20,000 nt of DNA from the IMG/VR virus record IMGVR_UViG_3300025916_000011. One strand, 5' to 3'. Positions 1 through 20,000 of the stretch are shown piece by piece. Positions within the stretch are counted from its first letter, which is position 1; each line of letters starts with the position of its first letter. The notes under the pieces were generated by a model that saw only the letters and a list, made by a program, of their open reading frames with translations, searched no databases and had not been told where the DNA came from. The stretch is from an uncultured virus (IMG/VR IMGVR_UViG_3300025916_000011). Its lineage: Duplodnaviria > Heunggongvirae > Uroviricota > Caudoviricetes. The position numbers were made by a program, and so were the translations under genes.

Positions 1-3000
1 CAAGCCTCCAAAGTCGCCATCGGTCTAATCAATACGGCTGTTGGGGAATACGAGAAGCAAGTTTCCGCTGCGGTGAAACCAGGAGAGGCGGGCGGAAAGG
101 GTGCGGCGGCGACACCTCCCACTGCCGCACCTAAGAAAACCAGTAGGGAGAAAGCCGCCGAACTCGCTCCGAAGTCTGGAAAGTACTCTACAAGTGACCT
201 TGCGGAGCCGGAAACGGCCCTTCCTGCGACTTCTACATCAGAGGGTAAGCCAGAAGCCACGGAAGTAGAGAAAACGGCTGTAACGGGAAAAGAAGAGGGT
301 GTACAATTCCACCATGAAACGGGCGGAGAAGGAACTAGCGGAGTTGCTAATGCCCCTGAGCGCGAAAATGTCCCTGCGGCAGGAAGCGGAAGCGCAGTTG
401 AATCTCGAACTGCTCATGGTCAGGGAAACGGTAAAGTTGCTCCGCAGGTCGAAGTCCAAGGCGCTGAGGGAGCACGGTCAGATGTTGCTGGCGGCGGCGG
501 AACTTCTCCAGAGTCATTACCGCTCCGCAGGGGCGACAGGGCCGTCCTTACCCGCCCGACCGAAGGGGAAAACGGCAAGATCTACCCGAAAGGCACCGAA
601 GTAATCATCAAATGGCCGCACCCGAACGGATTAGTAGCGCGAGCGCTGGTCAATGATGGAAGCCCGGATTGGCAAAACAATGGCCCAAAAATCAGCAAGG
701 GAGTCTCGTCCTTCGCCCGAGCTACCACCGAAGATGGAACCAAGATCAGCAGAGGAACGTCAGCATTCACCCGAGCAACTGTACCTGTATCGGTGGGAGC
801 TGTACATGGGAATGCCGACGTGCGGGGGAAACAGGAAGGGGCACCTGTGCCGAGTACTGGCGCGGGGGAAGCGGAACAACGCACTGGTGGAGTTCCTGAG
901 CGACGGCCAGAGGTTTCTGGTGAGCCGGAACGCGCTGAAGAAAGCCCCGCCAAGTCTGAATGGCAAACTCTCTTCGACCAAGCCTCTAAAATCCAACCTG
1001 ACAAAGTAGACTCTCTCCGTAAGATGAGCGGAGAACAACTCCGTGAAATCGTCCGCGCATCCGGAAATGCTAATTCCGGACAGACCTCTATTTCCGGACA
1101 TGTCGAAAACGATCAAGCTTCTAATGAACGATCCCGAAAGGTCTCCGACTACATCGAGAAACTATTTGAGCGTCGCGCGCGCAGTGAAGCCGTCAAGAGC
1201 CGCATGGACGAACTCGAAGAGGATGAGCGCGATCCGCGAGCCATCATGCAGGAGTTTTGGGCTAAAACCTTCCCGGTTCTGGATGAGCGCGGCCGCAAGA
1301 CGTTCCTCGGCAATTTCAAAGCCCAGATCGGACTCGGACCGGGCGATACGATTTCGACCGGACCCAGCGGAAACATTGTCGCCAAATCCCACCAGCACAT
1401 TACGGACGAGTTTTTCAAGAATGCAAAGACGTTCGACGGGCTGGAGCAGAACGAGCAAGCCGTCGTTGCGCTGGCAGATATCGTCAACGAGATGCGGCGC
1501 AAGAATGAACCAGTAGAAGCTGCTGCCCCTGCCTTGAGCGCGCCACAAGGAAAATTAATTGAAGGTGAATCAGGAGCCTCCCCAGTAAGCAACAAAGAAC
1601 CGTGGGAGATGACTAGAGCGGAGTGGAAGCAGAGTAAAGGTCTGACATTCACTGGCGGGGTCCATCAAGCCTTTGTCGAGGAAGCACTCGCAGCAGGTAA
1701 ACAAGTTCCCCCCGAAGTCCTGAAAGACTATCCCGACCTGAAGAAAAATGAACCCAGTGTCTCCCCAGTAAGTAAGACAGAGACGAAATCTAAAGTTGAG
1801 AAATCTACCCCAGTAGTAGCAGAAGACACCGAACCAGCCAAAGAGGAACCGACAAAAGCAGAGAAGACATTCGCTGCCGACCTAAACAAAAAGGTTGATG
1901 GACTACGGAAGCAGATCAAGGAACTGGAAAAAGAAACTGCCGCACCTGCCGCGTACTTCCAAGATTCCGCGAAGAATGCCAGCGAGCGGCTGAAGCGCGC
2001 CGCTCGCAATCAAAAGTTGAGCGACCTGAAATCCGAACTCCGCGAGATAGAGCAGGCGCACAAGATTGACCTCGCTGAGAAAATTACGCCGGAAGAGAAG
2101 GTTCCCGAGGAAGGCAAGAATTTCGAGGGGCGCTACGTCCGTGCCTCACTCGAACCAGTAAAGGCCGCATGGTTGGAGAAGTACAAACCACGCGAAGGCG
2201 AGGACGTAGACGAGCACTGGAAATGGATGGTCAAGAATGCCAGCAACGCGGACAAGCCCGCCGACTTCGCCAAAGGGCATCTCTACATCAAAGTGCCGGA
2301 CGACGGTTCGTTCTACATCCCCAATAATCCCGCTGCCATCGACCACGCACTAAAAGCGGCAGGCAAATTCGCAGCGTCAAAAGTCGGAGAAGCGCTGCCG
2401 AAAGCTGGCCCTAAGCCTTTCCGGATGACTTCGCCCAAGGAATTCGACAATGAGAAGTACGTCGCCGGACTGAAAAAAGAAATCTCGGACCTAGAAAACG
2501 AACTCGATTCTGCGGGCGCATTGCAAAAACCCTACATCGAAGAACAGTTGAAAGCAGCCCGCGAGAACTTAGTAGAAGCCAAAAAGGAAGAACCAGAGTC
2601 TATTCTCGCTGGTGAACGTGGTGAAGTTGCTCCCGGTGGCCCTCTCTCCGCTGCTGCCGAAGCGGCTGGCGCAGTTGGCAATTACCTTCGCGAAGCCGCC
2701 CACTATACCAAGATTGCCCGCGACCTCCAGCGCAACCTGGAAACCCTCGACACCAAGAAGCAAGCGCTAATCCTGAGTGCAAAAAATACCTTCGAGAAAC
2801 TGAAAGCCGAAGGACTGACCAAAGAGGATGACGCGAAACTCTACCACTTCGTAGAGAACCCCGAAGGCGAATCCCTTGACCCGAAGCAGGAGAAATTCTT
2901 CGATCAGGCTGAACCTCTGCTGGATAAGAACTCGGAACTCTACACCGAACTGAGCCAGGGCGGAATCCCGATTGAGAATTACGTCCACCGTGTAGTGAAG

Positions 3001-5034
3001 GGGAAAGGCGGAGTACTCGACCGGATCGCGCAGGGCATCAAGGGAATCACCCAAAAGGCCACACTCTCTAAATCCGCGCCACAAACCAAGCACCGTACTT
3101 ACATGGTGTTGGAGAATCAAAAGGGAGAGCGGCAAGTAGTCTCGGTCAAGGGTGGGCAGGTTACTTCATGGAAGAACGGCTCCCCAGAAAATCTCGGCGG
3201 GATCTCTCACACCCAAGAGGGAACTGTCTTCGAAGACAAAGACGGAAACGTCTGGAATCTGAAGCAAGCCACGACCAAGGAAATCGAGCAGCACACGGAG
3301 ACGAAGTATTATCACTCGTTCTGGGCTTCGACTCTAGTCTCGAACGTTCAGTTGCAGGGCGCTGTGAATGCGATGCGATTCCTGAACGAGTTTAAGACCA
3401 GCCCGGAATTCCAAGAGACTGCCTTCGATCTTAAAAAAGGGAACGCACCGAAGGGCTGGAAGACCACCAACCTCCAGCAGTTCAATGGGTACGCTTTTGA
3501 ACCCAGAACCGCCGAAGTTCTCGACGCCTATTACGATCGGATGCGCCAAGGAAATCTGGGGGCGCTGGAGCAGGTCGGGAACTTCATGCGGATCGCGATG
3601 CTCCTGAATCCGCTCTACCATCCGGCAAACGTCGTCGCGTCGTGGGCGATGGAGCGCGGCGCAACAGGCTTCTTACTTCCGAGCGAATATAAGATCGCAT
3701 GGAAGACAGGGAACAAAGCCGTCAAAGCCGTCATCGGGAAGAATCAGGACTTCATCGACGCACTCGACGCTGGCGGAGCGCTCCAGTCTCACCGCGAGGC
3801 CATGAAAGACATCAATAAGCTGTTCTTCGACCAACTCTCAGAGGGACTCGGCAAGCAGGAACCGTGGGCCATGAAAGTCGCGAAGGCTCTCGGAATTGAA
3901 CACGGAAACCTTCTAAATATCCTGCACAAGTTCTCCTCGACCGTAGCCTGGGGAGCAAATGACATTCTGATGCTTCAGTCCGCGTATGCCTATCAGGAGA
4001 AAAATCCGGGCGTCTCGCTGGCCGATGCGTTCAAGGAAGTTGGGCGAATCATCCCTGAGTATCGCGTGCCGACGCGCATCGCAGACAGTCAATTGCTTTC
4101 GAAGTTGATGACAAACAAGTGGGTGACAATTTTTGGTTCCTATCACTACTCACTTTTGCGCTCATTTGGGGAAGTGGCGAAGTCAGCGATCGGCGCGCAG
4201 GAACCTCCGCCGGGAAGCTCGAAGGCGAAGGAAGTCGCGAAGGGTTGGGACCGCATTGCTTTACTCGCTCTCGTCAGTATGGCGCTATATCCGATTTTGG
4301 ATGAGATGGCGAAAAAGGCCACCGGCGACAAGCATGCGAGAGTGAAGCGATTCGGCCCATTCGGAATAATCGACGCCGCAGCCGCTACAGCCAAGCACGA
4401 GCAATCCGTGAGCCAGACCATGCAGCGCGTTGTCACCCCGGCGCCACAGAGCAAAGCAGCCGCAGAACTCCTGACGAACCATGAGTTCTACGCAGGTCAC
4501 AACATTTACGATCCGCATGCTTCGTTCAAAACCCAAGCCGAGCAGATTGGGCGTTACATCCTCGGGGAGACTGGGCAAATCGGCCAGTACGAAAAAGCGC
4601 AAACCACACAGCAGAAGAGGAACTTCGCACTAGGCCAGGTCGGAATCCAGATGCACAAAACGGCCGCCGAAAAAACCGCCTCCGACATCGCAATGTCGAA
4701 AGTCGGGACACAGGCAGAATCCCCAGAGGATCAGGAGAGTCGTGTCCTTCGCCGGGAAATTCTCGACCAACTGAGAGCAGGGAATAAGAAGCCATTGGTG
4801 GACGCCGAGCACGCGCACGACATCACGCCGAAACAAGCACGAACGCTCGAAGAGAGAGCCAGGCGGACCCCTCTCCAAGATACCGTCCACGGCTTCACCT
4901 ACTCAGAAGCACGGAGAGTCTACGAAGTAGCGAGTCCGGAAGAGAAAAAGGAACTCGACGCGACGATGCGCCAGAAACGTATGAATCTGCTGAAGGCCGG
5001 ACGTGGGCGAGAAATCACCACCGCAACTCCCTGA
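1..5034 (+). CDS. Giant phage virion/DNA-ejection (large polyvalent-type) protein, 5'-partial, >1677 aa
   Basis: Frame 1 is open from base 1 to TGA at 5032-5034. Low-complexity E/K/A/P/G-rich N-terminal part, a PWEMT...HQAFVEEALAAGKQVPPEVLKDYPDL module, and a helical C-terminal part with a hydrophobic stretch (IALLALVSMALYPIL). Lies upstream of terminase. Confidence 0.7.
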   Translation, partial: QASKVAIGLINTAVGEYEKQVSAAVKPGEAGGKGAAATPPTAAPKKTSREKAAELAPKSGKYSTSDLAEPETALPATSTSEGKPEATEVEKTAVTGKEEGVQFHHETGGEGTSGVANAPERENVPAAGSGSAVESRTAHGQGNGKVAPQVEVQGAEGARSDVAGGGGTSPESLPLRRGDRAVLTRPTEGENGKIYPKGTEVIIKWPHPNGLVARALVNDGSPDWQNNGPKISKGVSSFARATTEDGTKISRGTSAFTRATVPVSVGAVHGNADVRGKQEGAPVPSTGAGEAEQRTGGVPERRPEVSGEPERAEESPAKSEWQTLFDQASKIQPDKVDSLRKMSGEQLREIVRASGNANSGQTSISGHVENDQASNERSRKVSDYIEKLFERRARSEAVKSRMDELEEDERDPRAIMQEFWAKTFPVLDERGRKTFLGNFKAQIGLGPGDTISTGPSGNIVAKSHQHITDEFFKNAKTFDGLEQNEQAVVALADIVNEMRRKNEPVEAAAPALSAPQGKLIEGESGASPVSNKEPWEMTRAEWKQSKGLTFTGGVHQAFVEEALAAGKQVPPEVLKDYPDLKKNEPSVSPVSKTETKSKVEKSTPVVAEDTEPAKEEPTKAEKTFAADLNKKVDGLRKQIKELEKETAAPAAYFQDSAKNASERLKRAARNQKLSDLKSELREIEQAHKIDLAEKITPEEKVPEEGKNFEGRYVRASLEPVKAAWLEKYKPREGEDVDEHWKWMVKNASNADKPADFAKGHLYIKVPDDGSFYIPNNPAAIDHALKAAGKFAASKVGEALPKAGPKPFRMTSPKEFDNEKYVAGLKKEISDLENELDSAGALQKPYIEEQLKAARENLVEAKKEEPESILAGERGEVAPGGPLSAAAEAAGAVGNYLREAAHYTKIARDLQRNLETLDTKKQALILSAKNTFEKLKAEGLTKEDDAKLYHFVENPEGESLDPKQEKFFDQAEPLLDKNSELYTELSQGGIPIENYVHRVVKGKGGVLDRIAQGIKGITQKATLSKSAPQTKHRTYMVLENQKGERQVVSVKGGQVTSWKNGSPENLGGISHTQEGTVFEDKDGNVWNLKQATTKEIEQHTETKYYHSFWASTLVSNVQLQGAVNAMRFLNEFKTSPEFQETAFDLKKGNAPKGWKTTNLQQFNGYAFEPRTAEVLDAYYDRMRQGNLGALEQVGNFMRIAMLLNPLYHPANVVASWAMERGATGFLLPSEYKIAWKTGNKAVKAVIGKNQDFIDALDAGGALQSHREAMKDINKLFFDQLSEGLGKQEPWAMKVAKALGIEHGNLLNILHKFSSTVAWGANDILMLQSAYAYQEKNPGVSLADAFKEVGRIIPEYRVPTRIADSQLLSKLMTNKWVTIFGSYHYSLLRSFGEVAKSAIGAQEPPPGSSKAKEVAKGWDRIALLALVSMALYPILDEMAKKATGDKHARVKRFGPFGIIDAAAATAKHEQSVSQTMQRVVTPAPQSKAAAELLTNHEFYAGHNIYDPHASFKTQAEQIGRYILGETGQIGQYEKAQTTQQKRNFALGQVGIQMHKTAAEKTASDIAMSKVGTQAESPEDQESRVLRREILDQLRAGNKKPLVDAEHAHDITPKQARTLEERARRTPLQDTVHGFTYSEARRVYEVASPEEKKELDATMRQKRMNLLKAGRGREITTATP
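314..604 (+). CDS. Possible overprinted ORF (+1 frame) inside the giant gene, helical 96-aa protein
   Basis: ATG at 314 lies 6 nt after TACAAT (302-307). Product MKRAEKELAELLMPL... is amphipathic-helical where the main frame is low-complexity. Confidence 0.3.
   Translation: MKRAEKELAELLMPLSAKMSLRQEAEAQLNLELLMVRETVKLLRRSKSKALREHGQMLLAAAELLQSHYRSAGATGPSLPARPKGKTARSTRKAPK
653..1009 (+). CDS. Probable overprinted small SH3-like phage protein (+1 frame) inside the giant gene
   Basis: YLYRW...RKGHLCRVLARGKRNNALVEFLSDGQRFLVSRNALKK resembles a small stand-alone phage protein family I recall (RKGQxCRVLARGxMNSxLVEFxDGxxxVxSRNALRK). Start uncertain (653, 680 or 734). Confidence 0.5.
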   Translation: MMEARIGKTMAQKSARESRPSPELPPKMEPRSAEERQHSPEQLYLYRWELYMGMPTCGGNRKGHLCRVLARGKRNNALVEFLSDGQRFLVSRNALKKAPPSLNGKLSSTKPLKSNLTK

Positions 5035-5234: not shown

Positions 5235-5861
5235 ATGGGGGAACCTTCCCCAAAGAAAAGTAAGCCGTCCGCGAAGTCTCTTGCCAACCTGCGACCCAAC
5301 CCGCAGAGCCTAAAAAGAGGCGGGAAAAAACCGCAAGAATTCATTACCCAGCCCGAGCTCGACTTCTGCAATTACCTGCTCGACGGCGCCACTGGCAAGG
5401 ATGCCGTGATTTGGGCAGGATTTCCCACCAAAACTCCCTCCCAACTGGCTTATAACCTCCGCCATAAGCCTATCGTAGCTCGGACACTCGAAGAACTGCA
5501 GGAGCAGCGCAAGAAGGAGTCTATTGAGCGCACTTCCCAACTTCGCGAGGAGCGTCGCATCTTCGCCCACCACCACTCCCTCCACTTAGCCCGCAAGATG
5601 AAGACCCACAAGTATCGTGGGGATGCGGACATCGTAAAGCACGCCGAGAATCTCCTACGATCGGTAGGAGATATCCAGCCGAATACCGTCAGCGCCAAAG
5701 CTGGAGCCGTAGCTGGTGCGCTTGCGGCCGCGCCGACGGCCACCTCGATCCCGCACTTATTTGTCCCTGCTTGGAAAAAAGCCATGACGCAGGTCGTAGA
5801 AGGAGAACCCTCTGTCCCTCAATTGGGAAGCAGCGAGCCCGGCGCAGGACGCATTCCTTAA
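5235..5861 (+). CDS. terS: Terminase small subunit
   Basis: SLANL motif then Terminase_2-like HTH (ITQPELDFCNYLLDG...AGF...AYNLRHKPIVARTLEEL); SD GAGGGGAG at 5220-5227; directly upstream of terL. Confidence 0.8.
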   Translation: MGEPSPKKSKPSAKSLANLRPNPQSLKRGGKKPQEFITQPELDFCNYLLDGATGKDAVIWAGFPTKTPSQLAYNLRHKPIVARTLEELQEQRKKESIERTSQLREERRIFAHHHSLHLARKMKTHKYRGDADIVKHAENLLRSVGDIQPNTVSAKAGAVAGALAAAPTATSIPHLFVPAWKKAMTQVVEGEPSVPQLGSSEPGAGRIP

Positions 5862-7329
5862 TTCTCTCGCGCAGTTTACCTGTGGAGGAGGAGCGGCCGG
5901 GACGTACAAAACCGAATCCCTGCTCGTTGACGCCGTTCACGAGTACGAGAATCCCCGGTTGAACGCTGTCCTGTTCCGCACGACTTTCCCAGAGCTCCAA
6001 GGCAAGATCATCCCGCGCTCCTACGATCTCTACAGTCAAATGTCCGGGGTGTACCACGAGAGTGAGCACTACTGGGAATGGCCTTGGGGATCTCGCGTCA
6101 AGTTCGCCTACCTCGGCCGCGACAAGGACGTTTACGCGCATCAGGGAGCCGAATACTCATGGATCGGCTTCGACGAAGGTACTCACCGCAGCGAATTCCA
6201 GATTCGCTATCTCCTATCCCGCCTTCGGTCGACTGACGGGCAAATCTTCTGTCGTGCAAGGGATGCGACCAACCCAGGCGGACCAAGCCACGATCTACAC
6301 ATGCACGTCTTTCTGGGAGGAGTCTGCCCGCATTGCCAGCCCGCCGTGAGAAAGCCCGGAGTCCTCTACCGCGATGCCACATGGTTGAGCGACAAGAAAC
6401 CGCTCGAGATGACCACGGAATACATTTTCAGTCTGTGGGATCCAAACGGACTTCTGCCCGACTACGGTAAGCAGTTGAGAATGCAGTCTGGTGGAATTTC
6501 CAAGGCGCTTCTCGAGGGGTGCTGGAAATCATTCGAAGGTCAGTATTTTGACATTTGGGAGCCGAATCGGGCGGGTATGCCAATGGTGGTGCCGCGGCAG
6601 AGCATCGGAGACGATTACTACTGGGCGCACTGGATTGGCTGCGACTACGGTTTCTCTGGCTCGAGCGCAGTCGCGTACCTTTTTGCCGTCGGTCAGGATC
6701 AGAAGATTTATTGCCTCGATGAGTACGTCTCGGAGAAAACCGCCAACGGAAAATCTGAAGATGTGAAGCAGTTCACGCGCAGCGTCTTTGAGCGGTTCTG
6801 CACAAAGCGCGATTGGCAGGAACAGCCACGAAAGATTCAGGCGATGTATCTCTCGCCAGACTGCTGGGCCGATCGCGGGGACGCGCACACTCTAGCCTCG
6901 CAGATGAACGAAGTCCTGCGGCCGCACAACCTTCACTGGATACAGGCTCGCAACGACCGCGCCGGTGGAGCGATGCTGATGTATACCATGCTCCAGACCG
7001 GGCAGTTTGTGATTGCGGAAAACTGCAAAGTGCTCCAGCAGTCGATTGAATCACGGATTCACGACCCCGACGAACCAGAGAAAGTTCTGAAGGTAATCGG
7101 CAGCATGTTGGATGACGCCTTCGACGCCTGCAGGTATGGCATCTACTCCTACAAGCGTCCGACCGAGAAGCCCCTTGCGATGCGCATCCATGAGCAGGTG
7201 GAGCATCTTTGGAAGGTTGATCCTACCACAGCTATGTATAAGGCGAATCAGATCATGGAAGCAGAGCGAAAGAAAGACGCGCCGGAAGAGTACGGGGGAG
7301 CCGCAGCGCGCGCCAGATTCAGACGTTAA
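5812..7329 (+). CDS. terL: Terminase large subunit (505 aa, CTG start)
   Basis: Frame is open from 5800 and includes PAQDAFL and Walker A GGGAAGTYKT upstream of the track's TTG at 5959. Walker B WIGFDE, TNPGG coupling motif, RNase H-like IGCDYG and DDAFDACRY. SD AAGGAG 5800-5805 then CTG 5812. Confidence 0.93.
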   Translation: MSLNWEAASPAQDAFLNSLAQFTCGGGAAGTYKTESLLVDAVHEYENPRLNAVLFRTTFPELQGKIIPRSYDLYSQMSGVYHESEHYWEWPWGSRVKFAYLGRDKDVYAHQGAEYSWIGFDEGTHRSEFQIRYLLSRLRSTDGQIFCRARDATNPGGPSHDLHMHVFLGGVCPHCQPAVRKPGVLYRDATWLSDKKPLEMTTEYIFSLWDPNGLLPDYGKQLRMQSGGISKALLEGCWKSFEGQYFDIWEPNRAGMPMVVPRQSIGDDYYWAHWIGCDYGFSGSSAVAYLFAVGQDQKIYCLDEYVSEKTANGKSEDVKQFTRSVFERFCTKRDWQEQPRKIQAMYLSPDCWADRGDAHTLASQMNEVLRPHNLHWIQARNDRAGGAMLMYTMLQTGQFVIAENCKVLQQSIESRIHDPDEPEKVLKVIGSMLDDAFDACRYGIYSYKRPTEKPLAMRIHEQVEHLWKVDPTTAMYKANQIMEAERKKDAPEEYGGAAARARFRR

Positions 7330-8538: not shown

Positions 8539-9657
8539 TCACTGCACCAGCATGTTCCCAACTGCGGTTGCTGCTGAACGCGCGTCTGCGCTGACGCTGT
8601 GTGTGTAATGGACCATGGTTATTTTTGTTCCGGGCGCGTGACCCAAGCGCTCCTGCCGCACCTTCATGGGGACGCCCGCCTGGTCCATGAGTGTAGCAGA
8701 GCAGTGCCGAAATGCCTTCAATCCCTTCGAGGAAATTCCGAGGGCATCGCAGATCGGTGCCAAGCTATCCCGTCGGACGCTACAGGGATGAAGTGGCCCA
8801 CCGCGGGGTGAGACAAAGATCAGCCCAATGGGATTCGGGCGCCACGTCTGCAGGAATGCGTACAGGTGCTCGGCAAGTTCTTCAGAGATGGCGATCGAGC
8901 GGATAGCGTTCGTGGTTTTGGGCGTGGTGAAGATCGTCCGCCAGACACTTCTCTTGACATGGATGAGGCGCTTTTCGAGATCCAGATCGCTCACAAAGAA
9001 CGCGCACAACTCGCCTGGGCGAACTCCGGTCTCGGCCGCAAGCCAGTAGAGAGTTTTGTATTGACCCTCGGCGGCCGCAATGATGCTCTTGGCCTCGGCT
9101 GCGGTGTAGAAGAACGGCGACGTCGGACCTGACGAGGGGAACTTTAGCCGGTTGAACGGATCGTGGCTCACGTACTCGTCCGCCATGGCTGACTTCCAGA
9201 CCATCTGCAGAGTGAGTACTAGGTTGTGCCGAGTCTTGGGGGACTTGCGAGATTGCCGAATGAACTCTTGGATCGTTCGCCAGTGAATGTCTCGCAGCTG
9301 CATCTTGCCGAAGTAGGGAATCAGGTGGCACTTCAGTTGACTGTTCACGGAGTACTGCGTCGAGGGCTTGTGGCTCGGGAGTACGTTCTTTTTCCAGAAG
9401 TCCACGAACTGGGCGAACGTCTCTTCGCGCCTCGCACGGTACGACGGGTCATTGATCGGCGCCAGACGGGACTCAAGTTCTCGCAGCGCCAGCTTCATTG
9501 TTGGGAAAGACTTTTTCGAGCCGAGCACTTCGTTCTTGCGGACCCTGCGAACTTGACCGGCTGCGTCAATCACATCTTCCCGCCATCGTCCCACCCAGAC
9601 AGGCTGCCGCTTCCCGCGGAGCACTACGCTTCCACGCTGATACCTTCTTCTCGCCAT
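8539..9657 (-). CDS. int: Tyrosine recombinase / phage integrase (372 aa from MARRRYQ; alternative start 9741)
   Basis: Arm-binding N-terminus (MARRRYQRGSV...WVGRWRED), SAM-like domain, catalytic TGVRPGEL, PKT, KAFRH, LGH, HYTH; SD AAGGAG 9 nt before ATG 9657. Confidence 0.95.
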   Translation of the reverse strand: MARRRYQRGSVVLRGKRQPVWVGRWREDVIDAAGQVRRVRKNEVLGSKKSFPTMKLALRELESRLAPINDPSYRARREETFAQFVDFWKKNVLPSHKPSTQYSVNSQLKCHLIPYFGKMQLRDIHWRTIQEFIRQSRKSPKTRHNLVLTLQMVWKSAMADEYVSHDPFNRLKFPSSGPTSPFFYTAAEAKSIIAAAEGQYKTLYWLAAETGVRPGELCAFFVSDLDLEKRLIHVKRSVWRTIFTTPKTTNAIRSIAISEELAEHLYAFLQTWRPNPIGLIFVSPRGGPLHPCSVRRDSLAPICDALGISSKGLKAFRHCSATLMDQAGVPMKVRQERLGHAPGTKITMVHYTHSVSADARSAATAVGNMLVQ

Positions 9658-9800
9658 CTGTTCCATCTCCTTTGGAGACGGGACAGGATTGTTCGCCGGC
9701 AAGGAATCTTTCAGAGTCTCGAGTTGGGCGTCAACGGTCATGGCGTAGAAGTGGTTACCCTGGATATCTCCCTCTATTCCTGAACAGAATCACGTTCTAT

Positions 9801-13746: not shown

Positions 13747-13953
13747 TTACTCCTCCACTAAGACCTTTGGACAGCGTTCACATTCGGCCTTCATACGTTG
13801 TGGCTTGCGAACAGCCGTGACCCATACTTCGTGCCCACAAGAAAGCGTCAGACACCAGCGACGTGCATTCATTGGGGACTGATCAACTCGCTGAACCGTC
13901 ATCACCTGCAATTTGTGCGTTGGGGATACAGTAGAAACCTGCTCTTTCCTCAT
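13747..13953 (-). CDS. Small Zn-ribbon protein (68 aa)
   Basis: MRKEQVST...LTLSCGH...CERC; ATGA overlap at 13950-13953. Confidence 0.7.
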   Translation of the reverse strand: MRKEQVSTVSPTHKLQVMTVQRVDQSPMNARRWCLTLSCGHEVWVTAVRKPQRMKAECERCPKVLVEE

Positions 13954-14684
13954 TTCGCCACACTTTCTTGACTCTTGAAGGCTTCCTCTACCATTGCGTT
14001 GAATTGATCCCGAGCCGCATCCCAAGCCGCAGCCCAAGCCGCATCCCGAGCCGCATCCCGAGCCGCAGCCCGAGCCGCATCCCAAGCCGCATCCCGAGCC
14101 GCATCCCGAGCCGCAGCCCGAGCCGCATCCCAAGCCGCAGCCCAAGCCGCATCCCGAGCCGCATCCCAAGCCGCATCCCAAGCCGCAGCCCAAGCCGCAT
14201 CCCAAGCCGCAGCCCAAGCCGCATCCCAAGCCGCATCCCAAGCCGCATCCCGAGCCGCATCCCGAGCCGCAGCCCGAGCCGCATCCCTCTTACTTTCGTC
14301 GCCTGTTTCTAAATATTCTTTAGTGATCGCGGGACAGTTCCACAGATGAATGACGCTGAGGGCCTGCTTTCGCGCGAATAGGCGCAAGAGTGCAGTCGCG
14401 TCAATGGTGGCAACGATCTTCCGCCGACGCGCGACAACTTTGTCCGATTGCGTCTCTACGATCCCTTCAAGCTCCACCTGATGCAATATTTCGCCCGGAG
14501 CATATCGCAGCGCATCGAAAGGCGTCTCGCTGGCATGGAGGCCGGATTCGCACATGATTACTTCTCCGTCATGCGTCAGCCATTCGCCAATCTTGGGCAA
14601 CTCTCGGCAATCGCGCAGCTTTGAGCCGGTGAAGTGGTAATAAATCTTGCTCGGAGTAGAAACCTGCTCTTTCGGTTGGGTCAT
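13950..14684 (-). CDS. DUF7666-like phage protein with (R/W)(D/A)AA tandem repeats
   Basis: [19 protein letters not shown]...[11 protein letters not shown] domain followed by 23 tetrapeptide repeats. Confidence 0.85.
14007..14287. repeat. 12-bp coding tandem repeat, about 23 units
   Basis: Unit A(T/G)CCC(G/A)AGCCGC on the + strand with only two variable positions. Confidence 0.97.
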
Positions 14685-19242: not shown

Positions 19243-19457
19243 CAGGGCAACCTCGGCATGAAATAGAGAGCCACTCCGCACAGCGCAATCAGAGCAAGTC
19301 CAACGAGGACGAACTTGGCTTCGTACCTGAGAGAGAAGGGAACTGGCTCCTGCTCTGTCATCTCCTGCATCTCAGCCATGTCTGCTAAGCGGTCGTCTTC
19401 AAAGTTTCGTTTCGGCATGATCAGCACCTTCTTTTCGCAATTCAAGGCAACACTCAT
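19239..19457 (-). CDS. Small membrane protein
   Basis: C-terminal hydrophobic helix FVLVGLALIALCGVALYFM; ATGA overlap. Confidence 0.7.
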   Translation of the reverse strand: MSVALNCEKKVLIMPKRNFEDDRLADMAEMQEMTEQEPVPFSLRYEAKFVLVGLALIALCGVALYFMPRLPW

Positions 19458-20000
19458 TTTTTGGCCTCAATCTTTTTTCCATTAACATCTACTTCCCACG
19501 TAGGTGCGCATACTCTGGGAGCTTTGATCTTTGTGGGGTAGTTAGGGTCTTTGTGGACCACGATTTCCGACACTTTTACGGGGCAGGCTACGAATTTCTT
19601 CCCCTCGGCGTCGAACTGGTAGCACATGCATGGTATCGGGCAGAAGTGGAGTCCTCCGCCACACTCAGCGGTACCGCCATCCCAGTCATCAGCCTTTGGC
19701 ATTGTGCCCGGTTCGTAGGACGTTCCGTGCTGGCTTTTCCAGTCGGCGCGGACGATCTTGTAGAGAATCGCGACGCCCTTCTCGGGAACGACGCCGTAGT
19801 TAGCGAGCCAATGCTTGGCCGTTCGCGGGCCTTTGTACTTAATCTGTACTCCGCCGGTCACTTTGGCTTTACCTGTGACCGTAACCGCTACTTGCTTCGA
19901 AGCCGTGACCTGCGAAGAGTCGCAAGCCGTGACCTGCGAAGAGCCGCAAGCCGTGACCTGCGAAGAGCCGCAAGCCGTGACCTGCGAAGAGTCGCAAGCC
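19454..20000 (-). CDS. DUF7666-like protein with N-terminal octapeptide repeats, 5'-partial
   Basis: Frame is open to the window end; repeats AC(D/G)SSQVT then LYKIV...YEPG...DWD...ECGGGLHF...KIKAP. Confidence 0.85.
   Translation of the reverse strand, partial: ACDSSQVTACGSSQVTACGSSQVTACDSSQVTASKQVAVTVTGKAKVTGGVQIKYKGPRTAKHWLANYGVVPEKGVAILYKIVRADWKSQHGTSYEPGTMPKADDWDGGTAECGGGLHFCPIPCMCYQFDAEGKKFVACPVKVSEIVVHKDPNYPTKIKAPRVCAPTWEVDVNGKKIEAKK
19901..20000. repeat. 24-bp coding tandem repeat (at least 4 units, truncated by window)
   Basis: AGCCGTGACCTGCGAAGAG(T/C)CGCA contiguous units with no spacers. Confidence 0.95.

Follow-up and report, generated by a model that had tools for sequence, protein, structure and literature searches.

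Can a single stretch of phage DNA serve both as the linker of a giant protein and as the gene of a small one, and which of the two readings would then be the older? The window analysed here, a stretch of 20,000 nucleotides from an uncultured member of the Caudoviricetes, raises this question near its 5' end, where a small reading frame lies within a giant ORF (Table 1). The virus record G001 is identical to the window at 100% over 1-5034, and in it the giant ORF starts at -1160 in window coordinates and comprises 2064 codons from stop to stop, or about 2055 amino acids from the first ATG. It closes a run of large ORFs on the same strand in G001 and is followed by the terminase genes. Judged by gene position, its product is probably an internal virion or ejection protein; the label is drawn from position because protein families name neither the giant protein nor the 12 ORFs upstream of it, which were without Pfam or PHROG match. 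The phage is temperate, its integrase being encoded on the opposite strand. A search via the terminase and the giant protein for closer relatives of this phage returned none.

Table 1. Features of the window and of related loci (window coordinates unless a locus is named).
Feature	Position	Strand	Remarks
Giant ORF, main frame	1-5034	+	Stop-free from 1 to 5031; continues 5' of the window in G001
Second nested ORF, +1 frame	299-604	+	GTG at 299, or ATG at 350 with GGAG 6 nt upstream; helical-looking; codon score 22.6
Possible small beta domain, main frame	517-726	+	Directly 5' of the nested core; by-eye likeness to a domain of L003, L097 and L095
Nested ORF, +1 frame	653-1009	+	118 aa from the first ATG, 109 aa from ATG 680, 91 aa from ATG 734
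Tandem duplication, period 54 nt	679-780 (679-726 and 733-780)	+	Each copy begins with a +1 ATG (680, 734)
Main-frame linker over the nested core	772-945	+	The -1 reading of the small gene; rich in G, E, P and R
SH3-barrel core of the nested protein	773-943	+	57 codons; unnamed phage family
Stop-free segment, +1 frame	1028-1516	+	162 codons; codon score 8.4
Terminase small and large subunit genes	5235-7329	+	Pfam/PHROGs
Tyrosine integrase	8539-9741	-	Pfam/PHROGs
Nested family with conserved helical motif, proline/lysine-rich tail and upstream Met	L102 66-332, L104 9666-9839, L105 9219-9443, L128 9246-9758, L129 241-477		Directly 5' of the conserved C-terminal domain of the giant proteins
SH3-family loci with DUF5131 or DNA methylase neighbours	L016, L023, L025, L026, L061, L065, L080, L082		DUF5131 adjoining at 8 loci, DNA methylases at 7; commonest named neighbours

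The nested protein and its family

The nested ORF is wholly contained in the giant ORF on the same strand, and both frames are intact: the +1 frame is free of stops from 638 to 1006 and closes with the stop codon at 1007-1009. The preliminary description of this locus had quoted a +1 peptide at about 779-946 and assigned it to a family of small stand-alone phage proteins with a beta-barrel pattern. The peptide is present exactly as quoted, from E773 to K943, over the main-frame linker, and the assignment to a family was borne out by phmmer, which gave 226 matches at E ≤ 0.001, 5 of them at E ≤ 1e-10, among 1.84 billion representative sequences. Family proteins are mostly small, with 145 of the 149 true matches among the 150 listed not exceeding 136 amino acids (the top row, P0004, is a false positive, a repeat protein, and was left out of the length counts), and in two annotated phages the family member is a stand-alone hypothetical gene. 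With an HMM score of 79.3 the window copy lies within the range of 91 copies (quartiles 78-89). A word-based protein search with the nested peptide gave no match, which is a weak negative.

AlphaFold2 with a 104-row alignment predicts a five-stranded barrel at a mean pLDDT of 95.7, in agreement with the SH3-like fold suggested earlier. The predicted barrel superposes on solved SH3, KOW and Tudor domains, none of which stands out (Foldseek best E 0.008, TM 0.71; VIA Z up to 7.3). KIN17, the KOW domains of Spt5/NusG, Src SH3 and YorP share the five-stranded barrel with Z of 6-7.3 and rmsd of 1.4-2.5 Å over 46-55 residues, but differ from the nested core in sequence (6-23% identity), and a common fold does not show function. 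None of the 104 family members matched any Pfam family better than E 0.005, with at most 2 members per Pfam family, and the Atlas places the SH3 family in three unnamed, mostly viral clusters at 0.91-0.92. No HNH or other nuclease was detected in the nested core, where Pfam and PHROG gave no match and the SH3 barrel stands alone. Going by fold and charge, the nested protein is most likely a small basic binding module for nucleic acid or a host protein, as KOW and Tudor barrels are.

Because the neighbours of stand-alone copies differ widely and include no fixed partner, the SH3 family behaves like a mobile accessory gene. DUF5131 (8 loci) and DNA methylases (7) are followed in the neighbour counts by terminase and portal (4 each). 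An excisionase role, brought up by two phage records with the gene 5' of an integrase or recombinase, was rejected, as integrases make up only 3 of 81 downstream neighbours. The family is present in 4 of 401 sampled Acidobacteriota genomes and was not found in the four genomes behind L126-L129. In the window itself, the early region also encodes ERF, Gam-like Gp157, KTSC, VRR-NUC and a DNA methylase, and two DUF7666 proteins are encoded on the minus strand at 13950-14684 and 19454-19861.

The main-frame linker over the same nucleotides is modelled at pLDDT below 50, in a single-sequence model that is weak evidence here, residues 1-133 being low throughout; a word-based protein search with the linker and a profile of 15 -1-frame readings compared with proteins of 108-2000 aa both remained without match, which are again weak negatives. 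For the possible beta domain directly 5' of the core, phmmer returned the segment itself alone, and its strands are modelled at low confidence.

Age of the two frames and selection on them

The preliminary description took the small gene for the overprinted frame. Our data reverse this: the small gene appears to be the old frame and the linker of the giant protein the new one, the opposite of classic overprinting. By the distribution criterion (PMC8227390), the small frame is ancestral because it is widespread. A gene born de novo would be a young small frame devoid of homologues, whereas this one has 226, mostly stand-alone, and the linker corresponds to a part of the host protein that arose from the other reading of a gene family already in existence. 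A functional nested gene and a captured gene recycled as linker had been offered as alternatives. They are not exclusive; capture is favoured as the origin, since the small frame is widespread and older, while present function is likely only, the usual start codon being absent.

Why such a gene should be found in +1 follows from the genetic code. Of 91 distinct copies, 20 have a -1 frame that stays open across the domain and 2 have the other frame open, while synonymous resampling expects 20.0 and 3.7 copies, respectively; the open -1 frame is thus not enriched in the family (20 observed versus 20.0 expected in 91 copies). About one in five copies can be read through unchanged, nearly always in the register in which the small gene is +1. 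Only this register is used because the code leaves the -1 frame of such genes open more often than the other frame.

The closest relative of the window copy is P0005/P0156, encoded in L021, which is 80% identical at the DNA level across 157 nt. Of the 37 differences within 57 codons, 26 fall on third positions of the +1 frame (p = 5e-6), and pN/pS is 0.18 in the +1 frame versus 5.07 in the main frame; the comparison with L003, made on 45 codons, gives 0.47 and 1.19. The inner frame therefore seems to be under purifying selection, although part of the signal may predate the capture. The synonymous excess relative to L021 may be older because the window and L021 copies sit in different host genes. 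A lack of homologues and stops in the +1 frame of relatives had been named beforehand as observations that would speak against a nested gene, and a comparison of substitutions in both frames had been proposed as a further check. Significant homologues exist, the nested relatives are without stops in the +1 frame, and the substitution pattern points to the inner frame.

When random substitutions avoiding only main-frame stops were simulated, the family score was kept in 25-71 of 1000 runs after 5 changes, in 3-12 of 1000 after 10 and in 0 after 15, with the score depending on a family set that was gathered with the window's own peptide and is biased towards the window copy. Either selection therefore still acts on the window copy, or fewer than about ten substitutions have accumulated since its capture; the simulation does not give the date of capture. 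In the codon-use test the nested ORF scores only 11.0.

Nesting in other genes and other giant proteins

Of the 20 copies with an open -1 frame, five are, by our own reading, embedded in a genuine host gene that continues as coding sequence to either side; in the other 15 the frame seems to be open by chance or to lead into the following gene. The five are those of the window, L003, L021, L077 and L136, and the nesting is always in +1. The hosts are the giant genes of the window and L003 and two unrelated genes, one in L021 and one common to L077 and L136. In a tree of 51 codons all five fall into one seven-member clade, with weak support except for the pair of window and L021 (0.996).

In L003 the ATG stands directly before the first motif, 24 nt are identical to window positions 773-796, and the giant protein is 43-44% identical to that of the window in the C-terminal part. 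Relative to a main-frame domain the two copies are on opposite sides, and their loop subtypes differ; because of these differences they do not date one capture. The L021 copy lies within a short zinc-ribbon ORF (weak Pfam rubredoxin-like match, E 0.0098) and lacks the usual ATG. Its +1 ORF, on the reverse strand at 1690-2092 and overlapped by the zinc-ribbon ORF in the other frame, opens with a GTG that overlaps the stop of an upstream gene labelled terminase-like by eye, and because of this overlap it could be translationally coupled to that gene.

In L077 and L136 the copy occupies the identical place in a two-domain host protein, each time with an ATG. Identity in the nested region is 0.77 in the +1 frame versus 0.40 in the host frame, with pN/pS of 0.29 versus 1.62, while in the flanking host domains pN/pS is 0.46 and 0.60 in the host frame and 0.98 and 0.96 in +1. 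Judging from these substitutions, this pair is the best evidence that the SH3 family works while nested and can persist there under selection. A search for further copies of this host gene found none.

The C-terminal 810 amino acids of the giant protein have relatives in 35 other loci on viral, metagenome and genome contigs, and the set comprises 36 loci including G001 after the duplicates L096 and L116 were dropped; four genome loci in it are Acidobacteriota assemblies, and the relatives belong to phages of Acidobacteriota. At least 500 N-terminal codons are held by 25 of the 36, and the SH3 family is nested in 2 of the 36. Of 273 N-terminal +1 segments in the 36 loci, 32 exceed a coding-likeness of 10, 14 exceed 15 and 10 exceed 20. 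None of 228 N-terminal +2 segments and 1 of 179 segments in the conserved C-terminal part score above 10. Local codon shuffles gave mean counts above 15 of 2.9 in 100-codon windows and 7.4 in 30-codon windows (maxima 6 and 10 in 30 runs). A +1 segment scoring above 12 occurs in 13 of the 36 loci. By these scores, +1 nesting appears to be general in the giant-gene linkers of this group and to extend beyond the SH3 family.

L097 and L103 hold a common nested ORF with pN/pS of 0.48 in +1 versus 1.47 in the main frame. Of two further nested families, one is present in 6 loci and the other in 5, and every copy of the latter has a Met upstream of its motif; the identity windows of famA and famD were chosen on the nested motif and favour the nested frame. 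The nested-ORF pairs of L003/L004 came from by-eye seeds and HMMs and were missed by blastp at E < 1e-3. By-eye alignment shows that the slot just after the N-terminal region is taken by the SH3 gene in L003, by an unrelated ORF in L004 and by ORF 299/350-604 in the window, where the SH3 gene lies one domain further on. Linker slots are thus exchangeable among the giant-gene relatives. ORF 299-604 scores higher in codon use than the SH3 ORF; no relatives and no Atlas or Pfam match were found for it. The open +1 segment further downstream in the window (1028-1516) is probably due to chance.

Other protein-like +1 ORFs without Pfam match are seen in the giant genes of L101 (6219-6587), L097 (1899-2126 and 2277-2492), L109 (3464-3679) and L004 (3990-4265). 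The giant proteins of L003 and L004 contain a ParB-like region matching part of phrog_21, and that of L004 also an RNA-ligase-like domain. Domain content varies among the giant-protein relatives, because the window's protein lacks these matches. At 12000-12872 of L004, a 290-codon ORF overlaps the end of the giant gene, presumably a LAGLIDADG endonuclease by its appearance. In G001, two to three inserted ORFs of non-structural appearance, at -3734 to -1528 in window coordinates, separate the giant gene from the large structural-type genes.

Expression of the nested gene and comparison with known systems

Most copies (66 of 76) have a start codon no more than 8 codons from the first conserved motif; the nearest one is 16 codons away in the window and 19 in L021. 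Candidate ATGs in the +1 frame of the window (653, 656, 680 and 734) lie 13-40 codons 5' of the core and pair weakly with the anti-Shine-Dalgarno sequence (-2.2 to -4.1 kcal/mol); ordinary genes of the window, with starts taken from the ORF lister, reach -7 or better in 8 of 16 cases and are as weak as the nested ATGs in 6 of 16. No internal promoter was seen upstream of the nested gene. The tandem duplication abuts the core at the site of the usual start codon. Its copies differ at 16 of 48 nt, 9 of these at main-frame third positions. Read in the main frame, the differences are synonymous in 5 codons and change 6, and in +1 the numbers are 2 and 8; the duplication was shaped by main-frame and not by +1 selection.

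From homology, the fold prediction, the two open frames, the substitution pattern and the recurrence, which are established, we infer with a probability of about 0.6 a small gene captured in a giant-gene linker, read through by the host frame and still expressed at a low level by internal initiation. An older mobile accessory gene for an SH3-barrel protein would have been taken up, by insertion or by read-through, in the sole register that keeps the host frame open, with the small gene in +1. The giant protein would now read the captured gene as a hydrophilic spacer, and the small protein would be made from the late mRNA starting at an upstream ATG (734, 680 or 653/656), which would give it an N-terminal tail of 13-40 residues. 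Against this reading stand the lost usual start, the weak anti-Shine-Dalgarno pairing, the occurrence in only 2 of 36 giant loci, the codon score of 11.0 and the failure to find a close phage relative.

A rival reading is a recent capture that lost its start at the junction and has since been silent, untranslated linker DNA that is intact because little time has passed. We regard this as possible, though rather unlikely. The missing start codon, the weak ribosome-binding sites, the main-frame rather than +1 constraint on the adjoining duplication and the patchy occurrence in 2 of 36 loci all agree with it, and capture needs no adaptation, given that chance alone leaves the -1 frame open in about 22% of copies. 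However, under silencing the 171 nt could have taken up fewer than about 10 neutral substitutions after the capture, the sister copy in L021, likewise without the usual start, is equally intact after 37 differences, and nested copies with an ATG (L077/L136) have persisted over saturating divergence.

In the window and in L021, both without the usual start, the open +1 frame extends 45 and 51 codons upstream of the core, respectively, at a chance of about 0.17 each. This could reflect a frameshift fusion, in which a +1 (or -2) shift within 638-773 makes the barrel the C-terminal domain of a shortened giant protein, and a few family members are indeed fused to other domains (4 of the 149 true matches among those listed exceed 136 aa). 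Such a fusion is improbable, as no slippery site is visible by eye, L003, L077 and L136 possess their own ATG, and the 150 matches listed include no in-frame fusion to a giant protein. Chance resemblance or an assembly artefact is hardly credible: G001 probably stems from the same assembly as the window and offers no independent check, but 226 homologues, a confident fold and the same nesting in four other independently assembled loci have already refuted it.

Capture with continued expression has partial precedents. The ShiLan insertion in actinophage DNA methylases is an HNH gene lying out of frame (PMC11855218). As in the window, a pre-existing whole gene was inserted out of frame and is read through by the host as a loop, with no clear ribosome-binding site and a patchy distribution. 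The ShiLan passenger is a homing endonuclease able to spread itself, whereas that of the window is a 57-residue SH3 barrel without nuclease; moreover, the SH3 passenger occurs in three unrelated host genes, and more than one kind of passenger is found in the giant host gene. The ORgenes of E. coli (PMC8788219) resemble the linker in that a short part of a protein has its origin in another frame of a gene already present, a part that is disordered in ORgenes and may be so in the linker. In ORgenes the borrowed frame is what matters, whereas the donor frame in the window is whole, apparently under purifying selection and recurring. Rz1 of phage lambda, in the +1 frame of Rz, is likewise a fully embedded gene on the same strand with homologues in separated arrangements, and separated genes are favoured as the primordial state of embedded spanins (PMC6139136). 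Rz and Rz1 form one complex, whereas the passenger in the window has no known partnership, varies among relatives and sits in a host of about 2000 codons; the exchange of passengers between relatives argues against the nested and giant products working together. In de novo overprinting of viruses (PMC8227390), there is also one ancestral and one new frame, and a new frame shifted by +2 and prone to disorder, as the linker may be, agrees with that account. In the window, by contrast, the new frame is the linker of a large gene and not a small gene.

Embedded +1 genes (PMC6139136), out-of-frame remodelling (PMC8788219) and a hidden out-of-frame HNH insert (PMC11855218) have thus been published. 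A full-text search, covering few subscription journals, returned no paper on nested genes in giant phage-protein linkers or on the SH3 family. New are the nesting of one family in three unrelated host genes, a quantitative explanation of the register from the genetic code and a copy without the usual start. One DNA stretch would then probably encode two proteins, the smaller of which is missed by ordinary annotation. Reading through captured genes would be a route by which very large phage proteins lengthen, and for small genes a route into the late transcript at zero cost in genome length. Since gene callers drop the coding-like +1 segments present in at least 13 of 36 giant genes, databases lack a layer of small phage proteins. 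With its start displaced, the window copy offers a testable midpoint between a nested gene that is still alive and a linker that is only its fossil.

A bolder version, which we offer tentatively and consider unlikely, is that one SH3 lineage is a stowaway cassette, which passes in +1 from linker to linker among unrelated phage genes and is expressed even after the loss of its own start, and that the linker region of the giant gene would be a second, exchangeable operon of small genes. It draws on the weakly supported seven-member clade that unites the five nested copies and on back-to-back nested +1 ORFs in L095. The latter, at 2248-2436 and 2437-2718 with scores of 32 and 36, are joined by a stop followed at once by an ATG, and by their arrangement they would form a nested two-gene operon inside an ORF of 3435 codons.
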